The notes beneath the pieces are model-generated. The model ran no database searches and was not told where the DNA came from. It saw only the letters and a program-made list of their open reading frames with translations. Below are positions 5,509 through 63,903 of a stretch of 64,000 bases of DNA, piece after piece. Every line of letters starts with the position of its first letter. Positions within the stretch are counted from its first letter, which is position 1. The DNA is from a virus, in IMG/VR virus record IMGVR_UViG_3300045988_110026. One strand, written 5' to 3'. The translations under genes and the position numbers were made by a program.

Positions 5509-8500
5509 ATGGCATCAACGTGTATTATTAAAAGAGATAATAAAAAGAAAGTTGTTTCTGTCTCTACCAGATCAGGGGACAGGTCTATGTTGTTTGATAA
5601 AATAGCATCTATTCCTCTTATGGAGAACAGGGAACGGGCTACTACTGTTTTTAAAACCGTATTTTCTAATAAGTTCTTAAAGGCTTTTGGCGACTGGAGA
5701 AAGAAAGTGCCTATCAACAAAAAGGCTTATAATAAGGTAAAATCCAACATCGATCTCATTCCGGAAGCCTATAGAGAAAGGGTGCTGGATAAGGCTTCTA
5801 AGATGAGTAACCCTGTTCTTGTGTCAAAATCAGATGCACCTTATGAAATCCGAGAATCGGGCTTTGGATTTTACAGCCAAGATCTGGGTGATAATATTAT
5901 GTTGGTAGATGCTATGGTCCCGTCAAGTATTTCCGTACCGGAAGGACCTGGAATAGACGCCGGGCAGTATTTACAAGATGCTATATCTTCGGACTTCACT
6001 CCCGTATCTATGGTACAGGATAAGGGTGTTAATTATATGGTTATAAAAGACGGTCTTAAGATATTTAGCCCAGAAGAGTTACCACAGACAGATTCTAATC
6101 CTGTGGGTGTAACGTATCAGACCGGAGAGCCTCGTTTGTTTTTCATGAACGATCGTAATCAATTATTTGAAGATTACGGAGAAGCTCTTCGCTCTGGCGG
6201 GAATGATATTAGAATAGGATTCTTATCAGGCACCGTTCAAGAATCTGCCTGGGATGGCGTGGCAGACATTACTTACAAAGCTGGAAGGTATGTTCTTAAT
6301 AATCCCAAATCTTTTATACCGGTCATGACCGCTTCTGCTTCTACTTCTTTATCAACAAAAGGTGGTATAATTAACTACCTTATAAAGAAAGGTCTTTTGT
6401 CCGGATCTAAGATATTCGATCCTGAAACAAGAAGCTATTATCTTACAGGAGAAGGTCATACAGGACAAATTAGACTTTTCAATTCAGCCTTATCCTACAC
6501 CGAGCTCCGTAATCATTTTGGTTCAGATGTTTCCATGAACGACCAAGGTATGATAACCATAAGCTCGTTGGATAATAGTAAGGTAACTATGAGGCTCGCC
6601 ACCGGAGGAACGGAAAGGGTTAGCAAAGAGCAGATAAAGAACGATCTAAAGTCAGGAAGATACAATGAATTGGACGCCAAGTACGATCATTTTGATGCGC
6701 TTGTAGTTTCATTCATATTAGAAGACAACGATCTTTATGCTGATACTAAAGCTAAGATCGTATCAGATTATAGCAGGCAGGAACGTGATCAACGAAATTC
6801 TATTGTCGAGATACTGAAAACGTTGGGCGTTAGTGTCATAGGTATGACCGATTATATAGAGAAGTATCAAACCAAATACGGGCACGAACCTTCTGCTAAG
6901 GCATTGGCGGATATTGCCAATAACGTAATAGCAGTTGGTGAAGATGCTACTTTATCTGATTTAGTAGAAGAAACAGCCCACTTCCTTGTAGAGGCATACA
7001 GAGATCAGAATGCTGTTGAAGCTGTTCTGCAAGATGTAGAAGGCACAGAAGAGTGGAACCAGTATGCAGGTCAGTATTATAATACATACGGTAAAGTATA
7101 TGAAGGAGCCGAGCTTGATAATGCTGTTAGGAGGGAAATTCTTGGAAAGATCCTCGCCAGGGAGATGCAGACCGGCACAGCACAGGCGCCGGTAGAGCCC
7201 ACCTCCTTCCTGGGGCGCGTCCGGCAGCTTCTCTCTGGAATAGTAAGCTGGCTTAAATCAGCTTTATCTACTCAAAGACAAGATTTGAATAACGTTATTA
7301 AAAACATTCGTGATCTTGCCATTACTGACATAGATAAAGGATTTGACACTTCTCTGTTAAAGGATAATGACTTTACATTATACTCCCTTTCTTCTATGAA
7401 CAAGAACAAGTTTCTTGAGTCTAAGATCAGATCGCTAAGAAAAACATTAAGAGACTTACGTCAGATAAGCTCTGATAGGGCTGTAACTACGTCTATGACC
7501 CTTGCTCAGCTTAAGACCATAGAAGATAAGATAAATAAAGTAGAGACCGAGATAGACAAGAATGAGATGGCGGCTGCCATGAACAGCATGATCTCCACAG
7601 CCGAAGCTCAGGTCAGATACTTAAGCAATGTGGTGAACACCATCCTTCATGGTGATACCAAAGACGGTAAGCTTCACTTCAATACCAATGATCGAAAGAA
7701 CGTCGATATTATCAACAATCAGGTTCTTCCGATCATGAACGATCTTCGAGGATATATCCGTAACAGAAGTACCGAATTTGATGAACGTGAAAAGCAGGAT
7801 TATACAAATAGGATCAATACCGTCATTGCCGACATCAATGGTATTCAGTCTGATATTAAATCAGTACAAGACCTTGATGAAAGTACGTTGCTTGATAAGT
7901 TAATGAACGAACTTCATGTGCCGGCAGATAAGGTAAAGAGAGTAAAAGAATTTTTCGACAAGGTTCAACACGATGTTTCTTGGATAAGTAGGTGGTTTGG
8001 TATATTAGAGCATTCTTCCAGTCCGTTCAATAACGCTCTTGGAGCTATGATTGCCAAAGACAATTACAATGCGATGGTGAATGCCCAGCCCGCCATATCC
8101 GACTTCCTGGCATATGCTAAAAAGCATGGTTTTAACAAATATGAATTTGAAAAACTGCTTCAGAAAGTAGACGGCAAAACTTCTAATTACCTTCGTAGTG
8201 CTCTTGATATGGCTAAATACGATCGTAATAAGAAGCTGGCGCAGATGCGAGCGTTTGCGACTGCCATGAACATAGAGATATCAGAAGAAGAAATCAATGA
8301 TGTGGTTGACAATAACCGTAATTACGTATTTAAAAGAGAAGTAGTTGACAAGGATGGAAATACGGTTACTGAAAACGCTAAATTCAAACCATCGTCTGAT
8401 AGAGTTAATACCGATATTTTTACCATCGAGCAGGAAAAGATCTATACGGAACAGATGGAAAAGTGGGATGCTGAAAATTCGGAACTGGAATTTAGCGAAA

Positions 8501-53883: not shown

Positions 53884-54225
53884 TTATGGTATTATTTGAC
53901 TGTATGCAGACTTTTCCATGTACACAACACTATGTTCCTGTCCAAGTATTTTCTTTGCTGCTTCTTTCTTTATCGCGCAATATCTCCCTGTACGATACGG
54001 ATTCTTTTGATCTGATCCATCCTCAACTTCGATAATAAAACAACCTCCGTCATCTATTATCTTTTTGCAATTGTCACATATTTCTCCCGTGCATATATGA
54101 TGCGGCGCCTGCCCTTTGATGTTATTCCCTAATAAAGCAATCCCCATCTCTTCACCGCATACTATGCATAGTTCTATGGATGGATTCAACCCATGCTCTG
54201 GATGCAATACAATACCGTCTTTCAT
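53884..54225 (-). CDS. Cys-rich zinc-binding protein
   Basis: CIVCG...CTGEICDNC. Confidence 0.45.
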   Translation of the reverse strand: MKDGIVLHPEHGLNPSIELCIVCGEEMGIALLGNNIKGQAPHHICTGEICDNCKKIIDDGGCFIIEVEDGSDQKNPYRTGRYCAIKKEAAKKILGQEHSVVYMEKSAYSQIIP

Positions 54226-54626
54226 TTTCTATCCTCCTTTATTAATTCTATTATAAACTTTTTATCTTGTTCCCACAATGGCAGCCCTTCTTTTACTGTG
54301 TATGCCACTGTTTCCCTCTCTCCTATTAATCGCACGGCAATCTCTCTTGCTTTCAAGTCATCCTCCTCATGCGATTTGTTTATTAAATCATAGGCACATG
54401 ATTCCACCTTTTGCCTTTCGATTATTATCGAACCCATTAACTCGCTTATATGCGATCCTAAAAACGATAAGACATTAATAGCTTTCCCAATATCATTTGA
54501 AATAGCACTTGCTAAATACATCTTATCCATATACTCCGGCAAAGCCTCGTATGCCGTTTCTATGTTTTTATACTGATTTTCGTTTACCTCCCTTTTAATC
54601 AGTTCTTCAAATTCTTCTTTTAACAT
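54222..54626 (-). CDS. hypothetical protein
   Basis: 134 aa. Confidence 0.45.
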   Translation of the reverse strand: MLKEEFEELIKREVNENQYKNIETAYEALPEYMDKMYLASAISNDIGKAINVLSFLGSHISELMGSIIIERQKVESCAYDLINKSHEEDDLKAREIAVRLIGERETVAYTVKEGLPLWEQDKKFIIELIKEDRK

Positions 54627-54650
54627 GTTCTTCCCTATTTTAATGTTGTG

Positions 54651-54730
54651 TGAGATCGCCGGAATCGAACCAGCCTACCGCACCATGAATCCCATAAAGC
54701 AAGTGCTCCGATCTTCGCAGATGGGAGCAC
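54651..54730 (-). tRNA. tRNA-like element B (T-arm GCTGG-TTCGATT-CCGGC) preceded by a 7-bp hairpin
   Basis: Minus-sense GTGCTCC-(14 nt)-GGAGCAC hairpin (54703-54730), then ~52 nt ending ...GCTGGTTCGATTCCGGCGATCTCA-CA. Not foldable by hand as a full tRNA. Confidence 0.35.
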
Positions 54731-54959
54731 TTTGTCTAAAGCATAAGAAAATTAATGAAGAAATTTTTCTCACTTACGCCATAGCATCTAAAATAGCTAT
54801 CAGCACTATTTCTATGACAAACATAATAGAAAATATCTTAAATGCCTTTTTCATATCGCTATCTCCTCCTTTTTTTTTTTTAGTTCCACAATAAACTGTT
54901 CCGGCTCTGCTCCGAACTACGTTCCACCTACAACCGCAGGCCTTAGCCCAAGGCGCCGC

Positions 54960-55220
54960 CTACTCCCCCTCTATGGCAGCCTGTTCGTACCTACAACACC
55001 AGTCTCCATCTATACAACTATTACTACGCGATAACAAACATTTATCCTTATAATAATCATAAAAAATACACCTCTCACAACTGTAATCCCTAATTTCTAC
55101 ACAGCTAACTACCTTAGCATATACTATACCATCACTGCCTTCTATTCCTTTCACCCCAAAAATAGAACCTTCTCCCTCCTTACTCAAATCTAAGTCAGGC
55201 GCAAAGTCATATACGTTCAT
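54960..55220 (-). CDS. hypothetical Cys-containing protein
   Basis: 86 aa. Confidence 0.45.
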   Translation of the reverse strand: MNVYDFAPDLDLSKEGEGSIFGVKGIEGSDGIVYAKVVSCVEIRDYSCERCIFYDYYKDKCLLSRSNSCIDGDWCCRYEQAAIEGE

Positions 55221-55294
55221 GTTGTTTATGTTTTAATTGTTATACATTCCGATTACTACTAATCTATAGAATATAGTTTTCAACTCTCAACCTA

Positions 55295-55462
55295 TTGAAT
55301 TTTGTAGAATAAACTCACATTATGCCGTTTTAAAGCACTGTAAGTCTTAATTTTGTAGGAAAACCCTACATAATGCTGTTTTAAAACGCTGATCTGTTGA
55401 ATTTTGTTGGCAGGAACTACATAACGCTGTTTTAAAACGCTGTAAGTCTTAATTTTGTGGGA
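55295..55462. repeat. tandem direct repeats, ~51-bp unit x ~3.3
   Basis: Units start at 55295, 55347, 55397 and 55449 (TTRAATTTTGTDG...ACATWAYGCYGTTTTAAARCRCTG...). Each holds a CGCTG-TTTTAAAA-CGCTG core. Confidence 0.7.
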
Positions 55463-55524
55463 AGGGAGTGCCCTCCCTCTCCCCCTCTCCAACTCCCGCT
55501 AATCCTCCGGCTTTCCGCATAGAA

Positions 55525-55656
55525 CCCACGCCCTACCGCCTCACTACCGGCATACGGAGAGCGCTACAAGCTTATACTCTGGCATGGAGTATGGGGGATT
55601 TGGAGATAATATCATTCCATAGAGAGAATAGAGAGCCTTCAGCCCACGCCCTACCG
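55525..55656. repeat. GC/pyrimidine-rich island with 14-bp direct repeat CCCACGCCCTACCG (55525-55538, 55643-55656)
   Basis: Local composition shifts sharply (CCCTCCCTCTCCCCCTCTCC at 55471-55490), and there is an exact 14-mer repeat 118 bp apart. Confidence 0.45.
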
Positions 55657-56154
55657 TCTGCTCCTCCTATCAAGATAGATATTCAAAACTATAATCAAAG
55701 CCAAAAACAAAAAGCAAAAGACCATCACAATATTATACTGATCTGGTCCGTACTCTAACATAGACCTTACTCCAACCGATAAAAAATACAGGTCAGCTAC
55801 TAATAAAAACCACCACATAAAATAAAAAATTTACAATAAGTATGTCCGAAAATACGGGTATTATAAAACCTAACTAATTGATAATCAAGCATACCTTATT
55901 TTTAAGAAAAATACAATAAGCCCAATTTTCAATCCATAGAGACGAAAAAGGCGGCATCCGACACCATATTTTGGGTCAGAAAACCGCCTACAGTTTCGTT
56001 TTAGACCAATTTTAACGACAATATATAGACAAAATACCGGCATTATATCCAAACAGCCTTATTTTTGTTTCGATTTGAACCAATATACGCATTCCTACCT
56101 TGTTTGTCGTCGTGTTCACTCTCAGAATATCCTACCCGTAAATAGAAAGAGTAG

Positions 56155-56197
56155 GATACAAAAATAGGGCTGCTCCGATATTCGAAACAACCCTATT
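56155..56197 (-). terminator. hairpin AATAGGG...CCCTATT, with a T-run on the minus strand
   Basis: read directly; downstream of minus gene 56203..56409. Confidence 0.45.
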
Positions 56198-56202
56198 CCT
56201 AT

Positions 56203-56409
56203 TTAAATACTGTTTATATTTTCCTTAACGTACGTTCTTGACGTATGAACTTTACGCTTGCACTTTTCTTTTCCGGTATCGGAATGATACGCCTCTTTGA
56301 GATCACGATACAACATAAATTCACGATACGCTCTTTTCCGCTTTTCTTTGGCTTCTTTCCTGGACAGACCGCGAACATCTACCATGTAAGATTTAAATTT
56401 CCTTTCCAT
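56203..56409 (-). CDS. small basic protein
   Basis: 68 aa, Lys/Arg-rich. Confidence 0.4.
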   Translation of the reverse strand: MERKFKSYMVDVRGLSRKEAKEKRKRAYREFMLYRDLKEAYHSDTGKEKCKRKVHTSRTYVKENINSI

Positions 56410-56431
56410 TTTCTTTATGCTTTAATTATGA

Positions 56432-56602
56432 TTAACCCCAGCGGTTAAGTGCTTCGATATAGAAACCTTCCGCCTCTTTGTACTCACTTTCGCTCAATGT
56501 TTCCACCGTCTCGATATAGTTACGCAATGTTATTTTTACGCAACTGTTTTTAGATTTATTGAACGCTTCAATTAAAGCGTTGATCATTGCTTTCTTTTCC
56601 AT
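56432..56602 (-). CDS. small hypothetical protein (56 aa, below ORF-track cutoff)
   Basis: Hand-translated MEKKAMINALIEAFNKSKNSCVKITLRNYIETVETLSESEYKEAEGFYIEALNRWG; sits 22 bp upstream of the next minus gene. Confidence 0.35.
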   Translation of the reverse strand: MEKKAMINALIEAFNKSKNSCVKITLRNYIETVETLSESEYKEAEGFYIEALNRWG

Positions 56603-56627
56603 GCTATTATATTATTTATAATTTAGA

Positions 56628-56688
56628 GGTTGCTCCGGAATCGAACCGGACGCGCATTCCTATCCTATAGAGATTTTATGCTACAACC
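56628..56688 (-). tRNA. tRNA-like element C (61 nt between acceptor-like halves; T-arm TCCGG-TTCGATT-CCGGA)
   Basis: Minus-sense GGTTGTAGCATAAAATCTCTATAGGATAGGAATGCGCGTCCGGTTCGATTCCGGAGCAACC-TCTA. Shares AAAATCTC with the tRNA-Cys anticodon region but appears to lack a D-arm. Confidence 0.35.
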
Positions 56689-57161
56689 AACAGCCCGTAA
56701 TTAGTACGTAGTTCTTGCGTACAGGCTCGTACTATGTTGTTATTATATTTTCCGTCCGCTACACAACTTAGCCACAAATAAAGGCGATTGTGTCCTTGCG
56801 TTTTGATACGGCACGTCCCTACATGGTAGGCTACATGCTTGTACCCTGTAATTTAATCTACAGCCTTGTTCTATTTTTCGTGTAAGCAAGTAAGACACGT
56901 TTCGATCTGGAGATAAACCTCGTACAACGGCATGTTTTCCAAACTGTAATCACATACCTAACATAAACCATACCTATTCGGATAGTCCATGCAGTAATAC
57001 CAGCCCTTTAATTGCCAACGGCAAGGGCAACGGTATATCTATCTCCAATATGTAAAATAACTCTCTGTTTTGTCAGCTTCAGTCTAAAGCATACGCGGGA
57101 CGTGCACCCACCAACAACGGCGCACAGACGCGTTTAAAGGTACGCGCCCAACCTTGTTTTT

Positions 57162-57764
57162 TCACTGCTGATTACTTTCGTGTGCTAAATACTCAGATAC
57201 GCACTTTGCAACGGTGCGGATAGAATAAGACTTAATCTTAACGGCCACATAAGTGGCTTTATATTCGTCCGTCTCTTTAACGATCCATTTTGCACTACTT
57301 TTCGTTTCCAACGTTTCCGCGGTTGCAAATCCGAAAGGCTTATACTCACCGCCATAAACTACATTATCGGAACACCAATCAGCCGTTTTTGCCTCAATTC
57401 CTTTCTCTTTATCTACTTTGCTATCCTTATATACTTTAGAGTATAGGGAAAACTTAACAAAGGTATCATCAACTTTTGGTAACATTTGGCTACACACAGC
57501 CACCAGGCGTTTTTTATCCTTGGCCAGAGATGCAACCTTTACAGCGTATTCTGCCGGTATTTCCAAGGCCTTGCAAATAGCCTTTAGATCAGCTCCATTA
57601 GCAAATAGAGCGTTGTACAGTTTAACAGCACCTACCAAATTTGCAGCATTTTCTTTGATAACGGCATTCTGTAGTTTGTTTACATTTTTTTTCGTAATCA
57701 TATCCCAATATATTTTAATTGTTAAACAAATGATATTCAAATTAATGACCCACAAAGCAGGCAA
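57162..57764 (-). CDS. hypothetical protein (start possibly at internal Met, 57701)
   Basis: 200-aa ORF; Ala/Lys-rich; follows a ~550-bp repeat-rich leader. Confidence 0.5.
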   Translation of the reverse strand: MPALWVINLNIICLTIKIYWDMITKKNVNKLQNAVIKENAANLVGAVKLYNALFANGADLKAICKALEIPAEYAVKVASLAKDKKRLVAVCSQMLPKVDDTFVKFSLYSKVYKDSKVDKEKGIEAKTADWCSDNVVYGGEYKPFGFATAETLETKSSAKWIVKETDEYKATYVAVKIKSYSIRTVAKCVSEYLAHESNQQ

Positions 57765-57927
57765 TTACAGATACATATATAGCCAGCCCAACGGGCACAC
57801 TATATAGGATCACTATGTTAACTCGTAATCTCTCTCGATCACGACGCAAATATACGACATTTATCAATATTACATATATATATGCTATATTTTTTTTGTT
57901 AACTTGTATTAATTTCGATTCTATTAT

Positions 57928-58076
57928 CTGATTATCAGTAAGTTACAAAAAACACAAGAGCAGTATTACACGCGTACATTAATATGTAGGATATATTCTT
58001 ATTTAAGTGGCTTATAATCAATAGGTTATAATAACACATTGATTATCAATAATTTAAATAAGTGATTGATAATCAG
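57928..58076. promoter_or_regulatory. cluster of TTGATWATCAA-type palindromes (57928-57938 CTGATTATCAG; 58039-58049 TTGATTATCAA; 58065-58076 TTGATAATCAG)
   Basis: Read directly. A fourth perfect copy, TTGATAATCAA, is at 55878-55888. Confidence 0.45.
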
Positions 58077-58097
58077 AGAGTTTGTGGGTTTGAGGTA

Positions 58098-58149
58098 AAA
58101 CGCGTTTCCGGTTTTCCAGCGAAGGGGGTGCGGGGGAGAAAACGCGTTT
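58098..58149. repeat. two copies of AAAACGCGTTTC(C)GG (palindromic core AAACGCGTTT) 42 bp apart
   Basis: 58098-58107 and 58140-58149. Confidence 0.45.
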
Positions 58150-58181
58150 CGGGGGCGGGAGGTTCGTGATAGGTACCCCCT

Positions 58182-58262
58182 CTCTCCCATCACATAAACC
58201 TCTTTCTCATATCTCTCCCATCACATAAACATTTCACCATTCCTCTCCCTCATCACATAAAA
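58182..58262. repeat. three phased 18-bp iteron-like direct repeats CTCTCCCATCACATAAAC (starts 58182, 58213, 58243; the third has a 1-nt insertion)
   Basis: about 31-bp periodicity, read directly. Confidence 0.55.
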
Positions 58263-58310
58263 ATATGGGGAACCTATCCAAAGTTCCCCATACTTATTTT
58301 ACGACGGTAA

Positions 58311-58703
58311 TTATTTACTTTCCCATATTAGTTTATCTTCGGCTATTCCGATCTTTACTTCCTCGCACTTTCTCCCTATCCATCCATTGAGATACGAGAA
58401 TGGTTCTGAGTTTTTTACTTCTTCTCCTAAGAAATTAAAAGCTTCAGTAGAAACATGGGATGCTTCATGGCAAACTGTTTCAAAATCAATTATTTTCTTA
58501 TTAAGAAACCATATCAAAAATCCCGTATTAGGATTTAATTTACACCCTCCGTATGGAACGGATACAGTTACAGCCTTGCTATTATCTACGTAACTAAAAT
58601 CGTTATTGAAACATTCTACCATGCCAGATACGTCTTTTCCTACGTATATCCACAGATTAAAAGGATAGACTTCCGGATAGAACTGATATAATTCACGCTT
58701 CAT
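58311..58703 (-). CDS. small HExxH-motif protein (putative zinc metallopeptidase-like)
   Basis: VCHEASHVSTEAF; 130 aa. Confidence 0.45.
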   Translation of the reverse strand: MKRELYQFYPEVYPFNLWIYVGKDVSGMVECFNNDFSYVDNSKAVTVSVPYGGCKLNPNTGFLIWFLNKKIIDFETVCHEASHVSTEAFNFLGEEVKNSEPFSYLNGWIGRKCEEVKIGIAEDKLIWESK

Positions 58704-59656: not shown

Positions 59657-60563
59657 GATATAAGCTTGTATATTTGATACTACCGTCTTTTAATGTTTCT
59701 ATTTTTATAACATCACTATATGAATTAAAATTCTGATCTTTATCAATCCTTATATTCAGCACATCATCTACGGTTGCAGTTTTTCCATCATCGGTTTCAA
59801 TCTTATAAAAATCTTTTAAAGTGATTTTTATATTAAGACCAACCCCATATGGATTTTCAAGGATATATATATGATCGTTGTTTAGAATAACTATTCCTTC
59901 ACTTGTATGTTCTTTGGACAATACATATTCTAAATCAAGATCTTTATCCAAAAATGTAGTAATATCCATATAGTTAATACCGGAATTATAGGCACATACC
60001 TTATCCGAATCAGAGAACTGCCCTGGCAGACCACTGGCGTCCCCGACCATCAACGAACATCCCTTAAGTTGACTGAAGTTCATACCGCGCATTACCGTGT
60101 CTTTACACTTCATAAGAATATCATCAATCATGCCCGTATTAGGCTTCCTCATCGGATTTTGTTCGTCATTTGAATAACACAACCTTTTTTCATATAGGAC
60201 GCCTCTTATACCTCTCTTTACCGCCAGATCATGTACGGACCTCAGTACGTATTCTATCTTAGCTTCAATATCAGCTCCAGAAACAAACCCAGCTTCTACT
60301 CCTCCTTGATTGCTTACGATAGCAAATACCTTAACACCGTTCTCCTGCATGAGGTCAAGAGCCTTATTCACCACATCCATCTTAATCCTCATATCTGTCA
60401 AGTCTGTAGCGAACGTATTCCCAGAAGCGGTTTCTATAAGCGTTCCATCAAAATCAAACAATAATATTCGTTTGGATTTTATATCAATATCTTGTACCAT
60501 ATCATTCTCCTTTCTCAAACTTACTTTTCTTAATCTCTCTCGGAACCAGGCAGAACACACCAT
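59622..60563 (-). CDS. HAD-IIIA phosphatase of PNK-3'-phosphatase / GmhB type with extra C-terminal domain
   Basis: LLFDFDGTLIE (DxDGT), IVSNQGG, RKPNTGM, MVGDASG; about 140 aa of unassigned C-terminus. Confidence 0.7.
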   Translation of the reverse strand: MVCSAWFRERLRKVSLRKENDMVQDIDIKSKRILLFDFDGTLIETASGNTFATDLTDMRIKMDVVNKALDLMQENGVKVFAIVSNQGGVEAGFVSGADIEAKIEYVLRSVHDLAVKRGIRGVLYEKRLCYSNDEQNPMRKPNTGMIDDILMKCKDTVMRGMNFSQLKGCSLMVGDASGLPGQFSDSDKVCAYNSGINYMDITTFLDKDLDLEYVLSKEHTSEGIVILNNDHIYILENPYGVGLNIKITLKDFYKIETDDGKTATVDDVLNIRIDKDQNFNSYSDVIKIETLKDGSIKYTSLYHESKENSDSLS

Positions 60564-60924
60564 CTTCGTCCTTAACCTTCACAATATCATAAACCGCATA
60601 CTGATTATCACCGATATCCCAACCTAACGAAGACAGTACATCACGGAGGTAAATACGTCTATATTTATCACCTTGTTTATTTAATAAAAACGATCTCTCG
60701 TCTTCTACCTTAGAAGGAGCTATATACAAATTAGAATCCAACACCCCTTTAAACTCAGCTCCTTCTTCCATACCAATAATAACCGCATCTTCGATACCCA
60801 TCCATTTCAGATTGTCCACCGATATGGTCATAATCCGATCTTTGCTAATAGAAAGCTTTCTGATTTTAGCTTCTTTTGTCTTAGAACCTACATAGGTTTT
60901 ACTGCTTAAAAAGTTTATCTTCAT
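60502..60924 (-). CDS. hypothetical protein
   Basis: 140 aa; overlaps the downstream gene by 62 bp. Confidence 0.4.
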   Translation of the reverse strand: MKINFLSSKTYVGSKTKEAKIRKLSISKDRIMTISVDNLKWMGIEDAVIIGMEEGAEFKGVLDSNLYIAPSKVEDERSFLLNKQGDKYRRIYLRDVLSSLGWDIGDNQYAVYDIVKVKDEDGVFCLVPREIKKSKFEKGE

Positions 60925-63886: not shown

Positions 63887-63903
63887 TGTCTTACTTTTTT
63901 TAG

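Follow-up and report, generated by a model that had tools for sequence, protein, structure and literature searches.

Theta origins with iterons and an adjacent initiator gene (lambda ori, pSC101 ori-repA, P1 oriR/incA, and RK2 oriV) combine direct repeats at near-integral helical turns, a GC-rich or palindromic segment, IHF-type sites, an AT-rich tract, and a linked small gene, and they occur once per genome. Rolling-circle double-strand origins (such as that of pMV158, with a nic hairpin and three direct repeats) and transfer origins (oriT) hold a hairpin-forming inverted repeat with direct repeats nearby and IHF-type sites. Partition arrays of plasmids and phage-plasmids (F sopC with 12 units of 43 bp, P1 incA, and parC/parS) consist of non-coding tandem units with a conserved core on a mobile replicon and tolerate changes in copy number. 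Operator clusters and looping operators (lambda OR/OL and the CG-centered sites of LacI, GalR, and PurR) place several short palindromes upstream of a promoter. In the crAss-like phage phi14:2, long gene-free stretches clustered among small genes are transcribed very highly from the earliest time point (Drobysheva et al., bioRxiv 10.1101/2020.03.07.982082). Features of each of these systems are found in a non-coding interval at 57702 to 58310 of IMG/VR virus record IMGVR_UViG_3300045988_110026, a stretch of 64,000 nucleotides referred to here as the window. The interval holds a genuine conserved cis-acting hub, present once per genome.

The window was 89% identical over 3.2 kb to phage crAssE-Sib (OR575929.1, 151,256 bp, source human gut; also written csAssE-Sib), which belongs to the epsilon group of crAss-like phages (PMC11054128). 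Phages of this group are uncultured and abundant in the human gut. Between about 12 and 64 kb of the window, every gene lies on the minus strand and GC skew is uniformly negative, and the interval lies between two such transcription units, which read leftward. Its upstream neighbor is a 130-amino-acid (aa) gene of unknown function (58311 to 58703, minus strand, phrog_1365) that closes a run also holding a PNK 3'-phosphatase and a DHH phosphoesterase; the element as a whole sits inside a block of replication and nucleotide-metabolism genes. The initial annotation had given the interval about 550 bp. A non-coding stretch between the two genes was indeed present, but it spans 609 bp, because the most probable start of the downstream gene is the ATG at 57701 (179 to 180 aa, as annotated in crAssE-Sib) and not, as assumed for a 200-aa product, the TTG at 57764. 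No published description of the element was found in the literature searched, and promoters, origins, and intergenic elements go unmentioned in the crAssE-Sib paper (PMC11054128).

A conserved block between terminator and predicted promoter

Observed in the interval were an intrinsic terminator, an array of variable length, a highly conserved core, a promoter box linked to one gene, and motifs that are unique genome-wide. In the direction of transcription, the order is terminator, tandem array, GC-rich block, AT-rich near-palindrome, third CGCG palindrome, invariant AT-rich block, and promoter box, with the following coordinates.

58255 to 58290, minus strand: intrinsic terminator that ends the upstream operon, hairpin AUAUGGGGAAC-UUUGGAUAG-GUUCCCCAUAU and then UUUUUAU
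58181 to 58262, no strand: tandem array of three units (31 + 32 bp), core CTCTCYC-A-TCACATAAA
58083 to 58180 (98 bp), minus strand: ultraconserved GC-rich core, on the gene strand GGGGGUACCUAUCACGAACCUCCCGCCCCC-GAAACGCGUUUUC-(C-rich spacer with CACCCCC)-GGAAACGCGUUUUA
58139 to 58150, no strand: promoter-distal AAAACGCGTTTC copy, 42 bp from the first; 5' arm of the putative inter-copy stem
58097 to 58108, no strand: promoter-proximal AAAACGCGTTTC copy; 3' arm of the putative inter-copy stem on the gene strand
57998 to 58082, no strand: AT-rich near-palindromic segment with inverted repeats, TGATWATCA at 58040 and 58067, and four IHF-consensus matches
57966 to 57990, no strand: third CGCG-centered palindrome ACACGCGTAC (57968 to 57977) fused to TACATTAATATGTA; 57972 to 57990 invariant in relatives
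57875 to 57937, no strand: invariant AT-rich block, T8-GTTAAC...AATTTCGATTC...TGATTATCA, G+C content of about 21%
57847 to 57855, minus strand: predicted Bacteroidota-type −7 promoter box TATATTTGC (consensus TAnnTTTG; form TATATTTG(C))
57702 to 57846, minus strand: presumed 5' leader, less conserved except for CCCAACGGG at 57787 to 57795
57162 to 57701, minus strand: gene of unknown function (179-aa product) that invariably accompanies the element

The region from 57870 to 58310 was more conserved than its surroundings, both in crAssE-Sib and across the 101 distinct related sequences of the window type that made up the conservation profile. Positions 58095 to 58185 were near-invariant throughout, at all three codon positions, and the G+C content of the core was 60% (38% in the window as a whole). 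Judged from these alignments, the GC block is the constant part of the region, with nucleotide conservation far above that of the neighboring protein; in diverged phages that carry the core, the flanking protein was only 25 to 46% identical. A 55-aa open reading frame (ORF) at 58026 to 58193 (WOZ57220.1, crAssE-Sib OR575929.1 1938 to 2105) was ruled out as a gene because the core is invariant at every codon position; in our reading of the sequences, its counterpart in the diverged locus L175 is in a different frame. WOZ57220.1 is very likely a spurious gene call. The AAAACGCGTTTC copies at 58097 and 58139, described earlier as paired repeats, contain the only exact AAACGCGTTT sites in the 64-kb window and likewise in the 151-kb crAssE-Sib genome, which was joined from four sequence pieces for whole-genome skew and motif counts. 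The motifs listed in the initial annotation were all present and non-random (direct repeat, 3 versus 0.08 expected; TGATWATCA, 5 versus 1.6), and 57870 to 58310 was conserved in relatives.

The same succession recurs in diverged loci. In L175 (41% protein identity) and L179 (38%) we found purine-rich short repeats, TACCACCTACCATGAACCYCCCGCC, two AAAWCGCGTTTT copies 42 to 43 bp (4 helical turns) apart around a CACCCCC spacer, an AT-rich segment with ATCAATAATTTA, ACGCGTACAT, TAYATTTGC, and the gene, and in L178, L181, and L183 this order was partly kept. Pattern scans added L184, L221, L239, L247, and L252 as further loci. The core was recognizable in these five, in L175, and in L179, and partly in L178 and L183; ACGCGTACAT or ATGTACGCG was found in L175, L179, and L182. 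The distance from the second palindrome to the −7 box was 203 to 206 bp in three diverged groups (L175; L179/L184/L239/L247; and L221/L252). Among GTDB representative genomes, the core was found in L258 only (NZ_DXLG01000138.1, a 3.9-kb contig of a Veillonella sp. metagenome-assembled genome); the contig is short and its edge lies 48 nt from the core, which makes a mis-binned phage fragment more probable than a clue to the host. A comparison of the region with PLSDB plasmids returned zero relatives.

On the upstream side, the terminator starts 20 nt past the stop codon at 58311 and has the stable GC-rich hairpin, U-tract, and position near a stop codon of an intrinsic terminator. Its hairpin (58264 to 58290 plus the U-tract) folds at −22.5 kcal/mol (z = −4.6; 0 of 200 shuffles equal), and it also closes the array in 45 related loci. 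On the downstream side, about 420 bp from the terminator, the −7 box was invariant in the 101 relatives, and TAYATTTGC was found upstream of the homologous gene in 7 of the 7 lineages examined. Minus-strand TAnnTTTG was about 4 times denser in intergenic gaps of the window than in coding sequence, and the extended form cgTATATTTGcg also occurs 26 nt before gene 60502 to 60924. The box is therefore best described as a predicted host-type (Bacteroidota sigma-A) promoter for the downstream gene, and the position of the box makes 57702 to 57846 its presumed leader. By inspection, no −33 element TTTG was found 19 to 21 nt upstream of the −7 box, where the only candidate was a TATG 18 nt upstream; L175, L179, and L182 share AATCGAAAA-N7-TAYATTTGC instead. 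A sigma-54 promoter (GG-N10-GC) was rejected, also by inspection, as only L179 fits, by chance.

The downstream 180-aa protein belongs to a family that is restricted to these phages. It has 334 homologues, most of them at least 87% identical (37 representatives at the 50% level), and a search of cluster representatives gave distant homologues at 25 to 46% identity. An AlphaFold2 model made with the alignment had a predicted local distance difference test (pLDDT) score of 91.9, and its comparison with PDB and BFVD returned no structural or family match; the model apparently represents a new fold, and fold comparison found it to be neither winged-helix nor Rep-like. A reading of the protein as an HUH endonuclease or relaxase was rejected, with no HxH motif in the family alignment and no structural match. 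Its proposed role as cognate initiator found nothing in its favor beyond the conserved linkage to the element.

Between core and promoter lie the AT-rich segments. The AT tract noted earlier at 57840 to 57925 had a G+C content of 22%. Of the palindromes reported there as TTGATWATCAA, the 9-bp cores TGATWATCA were confirmed at 57929, 58040, and 58067, but perfect 11-mers are present only at 58039 and 55878. Two further 9-bp cores lie at 55879 and 60602, so that the window holds five (1.6 expected; 3 of 100 shuffles reach 5), three of them within 147 bp. Four matches to the IHF consensus WATCAANNNNTTR, in alternating orientation, fall within the 56 bp from 58016 to 58071; the whole window holds 13 (about 7.5 expected), and of 6 diverged loci scanned, 5 had at least one match in the equivalent region, with the caveat for all these counts that the consensus is that of Escherichia coli and may not be the host's.

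Our preferred reading, held tentatively, is that the interval is a control region at a transcription-unit boundary and would act as an upstream platform for a host-type promoter. The upstream operon (PNK 3'-phosphatase, DHH phosphoesterase, and the 130-aa gene) ends at the strong intrinsic terminator, and the Bacteroidota sigma-A promoter TATATTTGC would start the next unit, which comprises the 180-aa gene and a conserved 560-nt non-coding stretch. Parts of the platform would be the core with its two AAAACGCGTTTT copies four helical turns apart, the third (ACGCGT) palindrome, and the bendable AT-rich segment with TGATWATCA and IHF-consensus sites. Sequence-specific proteins would bind the CGCG-centered sites, an IHF/HU-type protein would bend the AT-rich DNA, and binding and bending together would set the activity or timing of the promoter. 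The array would be an expandable accessory, serving as additional sites or else arising by slippage seeded at the purine-rich 5' edge of the core. Of the two classes named in the initial annotation, a heavily regulated switch promoter or leader fits the dense conserved cluster with its promoter, whereas an origin is unsupported by skew and by the variability of the array.

Operator clusters resemble the locus in their short palindromes upstream of a promoter, here AAACG/CGTTT sites 4 turns apart with a third 100 to 130 bp away. Repressor and anti-repressors were reported for crAssE-Sib (PMC11054128), and its genome holds a 75-codon gene (95129 to 95353) annotated as lactose operon repressor, as well as one for a putative DNA-binding protein (5691 to 5960). 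Unlike in operator clusters, the CGCG palindromes lie 120 to 300 bp upstream of the −7 box without overlap, and no repressor was matched to them. The geometry of a dimeric-repressor operator, with sites overlapping or flanking the promoter, was not found either, as the nearest palindrome (57929 to 57937) lies about 75 bp upstream of the −7 box. Phage immunity regions differ in that nucleotide conservation is far higher here and complementarity between the copies is kept over the symmetry of each site.

Several further points weigh against a control region. The core lies 250 to 300 bp upstream of the −7 box, which is far for a simple operator, and compared with the window type, the other lineages have a core-to-promoter distance that is about 46 bp different, an out-of-phase shift of 4.4 turns. 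Conservation of the core far exceeds that of the flanking protein; such a pattern is more usual for a structured nucleic acid, or for an element recognized by conserved host machinery, than for a phage operator. The proteins that would bind the platform are hypothetical, none having been matched to the sites. In L239 and L184 the copies keep mutual complementarity over their own symmetry, and wobble pairs fit the gene strand only, which favors a hairpin over two dimer sites.

Possible pairing of the two palindrome copies

Because AAAACGCGTTTT is itself palindromic, its two copies form both a direct and an inverted repeat. Comparison of lineages gives a hint that the copies pair with one another as RNA or single-stranded DNA. 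In L239 and L184, AAATCGCGTTTT is found with AAAACGCGATTT; neither copy is still symmetric in itself, and the second is exactly the reverse complement of the first. Next to the stem, the window type has a C-G pair where the L179 type has U-A. At position 58108, the sole variable position of the stem foot, 84 of the 101 window-type sequences have C, 14 have T, and 3 have A; the change to T converts a G.U into an A-U pair on the gene strand (14 of 17 variants), and the change to A breaks the pair (3 of 17). Folding was better than that of shuffles on the gene strand (z = −2.56) but not on the opposite strand (z = +1.21).

These observations would be explained by a structured nucleic acid on the gene strand. 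Transcription that reads through the terminator or that starts within the purine-rich array would cover the core, whose 12- to 14-bp stem GAAACGCGUUUUC/GGAAACGCGUUUUA with a C-rich 30-nt loop would be a non-coding RNA or RNA signal, the array (GGGAG/AGGAGG-like) being a variable 5' part; or the hairpin would form in replicating single-stranded DNA. The invariance of the core at the nucleotide level speaks for it too, as does the precedent of the highly transcribed intergenic regions of phi14:2 (bioRxiv 10.1101/2020.03.07.982082), but a palindrome pair is complementary by construction, and template-switch correction could give a double change without selection. Two-sided changes occurred in 2 of 13 stem pairs and go back to about two independent events, and 17 of 500 shuffles also reached the covariation score; pairing of the stem (87%, versus 24 to 60% in slid controls) rests on the same approximately two events. 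In addition, no recognizable promoter was found upstream of the core, which lies just past a strong terminator, and the stem was not kept in L178 and L183. Rfam 15 gave zero matches for the whole window at gathering thresholds, and for 54500 to 58500 at E ≤ 1 it gave one chance mir-17 match only, elsewhere than the element. We consider a structured nucleic acid unlikely as the explanation of the core.

Unlikely to a similar degree is a broader form of this proposal, in which the core would be an undescribed structured element shared by a widespread gut-phage group, a gene-strand hairpin with a 12- to 14-bp AAAACGCGUUUU stem and a C-rich 30-nt loop, read as RNA or single-stranded DNA by conserved host machinery. 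The purine-rich array (GGGAG/AGGAGG-like) would then be a contingency locus that expands and contracts and so tunes the dose of a binding motif or of transcription starts, and the element and the tRNA-like-ended stretch behind the 180-aa gene would jointly make up a novel hub of non-coding RNA in epsilon crAss-like phages. Should the core be a new RNA, or an origin, this phage group would have its first defined element of that kind. The long gene-free stretches among small genes are likened to those of phi14:2, whereas no sequence or repeat similarity was seen, phi14:2 g004 is non-homologous (hhalign probability, 0.4%), and homology to the phi14:2 non-coding RNA locus was rejected. Rolling-circle origins and oriT differ in that no HUH or relaxase gene is present here and the 30-nt loop is much larger than known nick loops.

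The tandem array and the question of an origin

Copies of (T)CTCTCCCATCACATAAAC begin at 58181, 58212, and 58244, at spacings of 31 and 32 bp, the third copy being degenerate (84% identical). Three occurrences of such an 18- to 19-mer direct repeat compare with 0.08 expected (0 of 100 shuffles reach 3), and the plus strand of the array holds zero G. The initial annotation had named them three phased 18-bp iterons; the three copies and their spacing stood, but the repeat is hypervariable, with 1 to at least 13 units in relatives (units of 27 to 33 bp in close relatives; spacings of 22 to 33 bp, in loci that resolve the array) and four in crAssE-Sib, and it is absent from the diverged lineages L221 and L252, which keep the rest of the module. 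Since the core is kept in L221 and L252 without the array, the array is dispensable. Both ends of the array are constant, with the first unit starting 38 nt from the second palindrome in all cases and the last unit fixed, and interior units were multiplied by duplication, once as a 62-bp two-unit period.

A protein-guided scan of IMG/VR yielded 51 related loci, and 16 of these contigs stop 170 to 480 nt past the 130-aa gene, their end points being offset from one another by multiples of about 31. By BLAST against the window, these 16 ends fall within the array. It is thus a variable-number tandem repeat that breaks assemblies, and its length could act as a strain marker.

Neutral slippage could by itself produce such an array, with the other motifs being ordinary AT-rich intergenic sequence. 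The highly variable copy number, the interior duplications, and the lack of the array in L221 and L252 fit this explanation, but within the units the core TCACATAAA is near-invariant while 14 distinct spacers of 10 to 13 nt differ, so that this core is under some constraint. Related purine-rich repeats (TTTATG...GGGAG or TTTGTTTAAGGAGGG) recur with other periods at the equivalent place in diverged lineages, and outside the array the region exceeds the flanking genes in conservation. Neutrality is for these reasons improbable. The exact array core CATCACATAAA occurs in the 151-kb crAssE-Sib genome in this array only; look-alikes with a single mismatch were found at four places elsewhere in that genome, one of them at the equivalent of window position 55810. 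Partition arrays share with this array their tandem, non-coding units, conserved core, and tolerated changes in copy number, but the units here are without an inverted repeat and the array is missing in some lineages. ParA or ParB domains were found in none of the nine neighboring proteins, the whole phage not having been systematically scanned.

As a replication origin, the locus would have its core hairpin or palindromes as the entry of initiator or primase, the 22% G+C tract as the site of unwinding, IHF-like sites as architecture, and the array as accessory initiator repeats; either the linked 180-aa protein would bind the origin, as a new kind of origin-binding protein, or transcription starting at the nearby promoter would trigger firing. 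The layout has been likened to the lambda, pSC101, and RK2 origins, which it resembles in type through its repeats, GC-rich palindromes, IHF-like sites, and AT-rich tract. Presence once per genome (in crAssE-Sib), the linkage to one protein family across lineages, conservation of the core far past that of neighboring proteins, and the location within a block of replication and nucleotide-metabolism genes agree with an origin, and an 8-of-9 match to the DnaA box, ATATCCACA, directly follows the second palindrome in the L184/L247 lineage only. The window, however, is without a DnaA box (6 of 9 at best, by inspection), and the 180-aa protein is without a winged-helix or Rep-like fold. An array of 0 to at least 13 units cannot be an essential set of phased iterons; moreover, it lies about 220 to 320 bp from the 21 to 22% G+C tract at 57856 to 57960, with the GC block between. 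No GC-skew inflection was seen at the site: the cumulative skew of crAssE-Sib is lowest at 17 kb and highest at 110 kb, at switches of gene orientation, its slope does not change across the site, and the site lies at about 2 kb of the record, 15 kb from the skew extremes. Because skew follows transcription direction, this evidence is weak. The element was also found in zero PLSDB plasmids. We regard an origin as doubtful, though the next most probable reading after a control region. Compared with iteron theta origins, the most conserved part here is a palindrome pair complementary to each other and not the repeats, of which 0 to at least 13 are found about 250 bp from the AT tract.

Arrays of repeats stand beside the genome ends of T7-like phages, and many contigs of about 150 kb end at the array described here. 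Both speak for a packaging (pac/cos) or genome-end signal, with the repeats as terminase sites by the cleavage site, as does the position of the element within 2 kb of the crAssE-Sib genome start that was defined by PhageTerm (PMC11054128). This start corresponds to window position 56121, however, 2.0 kb away, where a better packaging candidate is found. Contigs end at variable repeat registers inside the array, which therefore is an unresolvable repeat and not a physical end, and they end likewise in an unrelated 51-bp array at 55317 to 55463. A genome terminus at the array was rejected on these grounds, and a packaging function of the element is highly improbable.

Neighboring loci

The element and its neighbors at 54.6 to 57.2 kb are among the densest non-coding clusters of these genomes and offer handles for the study of transcription, replication, and packaging. 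The crAssE-Sib genome start was fixed by PhageTerm with P = 1.5e-22 (PMC11054128). Its position 1 maps to 56121, the center of an inverted repeat with 27-nt arms (56045 to 56071 and 56155 to 56181). Beside it, ATTGGTYYAAAWCGAAAC occurs on the minus strand in two copies 74 nt apart (about 55994 to 56012 and 56068 to 56086), and it recurs 3 to 4 times at spacings of 64 to 148 nt in the equivalent gap of L179 (6717 to 6962) and L182 (6477 to 6786). The stretch from 55990 to 56190 is likely the best candidate for packaging or a genome end. The motif AAATCGAAA was not enriched window-wide (48 versus 44 expected); a longer version is locally repeated near 56.0 kb.

The second array, at 55317 to 55463, consists of three 51-bp units, each with the palindrome GTTTTAAAAC, and adjoins a GC-rich stretch at 55460 to 55560. 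GTTTTAAAAC holds the AAAACG half-site of the element's palindromes in the opposite arrangement. Many related contigs end in this array as well. Because both arrays break assembly, the segment of about 2.7 kb between them assembles alone, as contigs of about 2.75 kb in many public runs; the two arrays account for the fixed assembly break points.

A gene-free stretch of 560 to 700 nt follows the 180-aa gene in the window (56603 to 57161, minus strand) and in 5 of 5 homologue contigs that are long enough (L175, L178, L179, L182, and L183). In the window, L175 (1796 to 2498), and L179 (5559 to 6210), the stretch shares nucleotide-level blocks. Its end, 20 to 30 nt ahead of the following start codon, is a tRNA-like module made up of a T-arm (GGTTCGATTCC) and an acceptor stem, the latter being a perfect 7-bp duplex, AGCATAC/GTATGCT, in L175 and L179. 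Neither ARAGORN nor Rfam called this module, and the sole match in a tRNA search of the window was a tRNA-Cys at 63903. A non-coding RNA that resembles Y RNA and mimics a tRNA is worth considering, as genes for a Ro60-related protein and a CCA-adding/polyA polymerase are present in crAssE-Sib.

A second fragment resembling a tRNA 3' half lies at 54640 to 54740 on the minus strand (GCTGG-TTCGATT-CCGGC plus GATCTCA), just upstream of the small gene 54222 to 54626, and follows a 14-bp hairpin that has a GCGA loop (z = −2.8). Homology is interrupted in several relatives at 54243/54638 and at about 56415/56591. Since these breaks bracket the small genes 54222 to 54626 and 56432 to 56602, each behind a tRNA-like fragment, the cassettes look exchangeable. 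A 14-nt sequence, CGWAKWTCGGAGCA (minus strand), occurs three times (54704, 54908, and 56171, in plus coordinates), each time within a hairpin; in two cases the stop codon of a small minus-strand gene precedes the copy by 19 to 39 nt, and the third copy is in a long gene-free gap. It is possibly a phage-specific terminator or processing signal.

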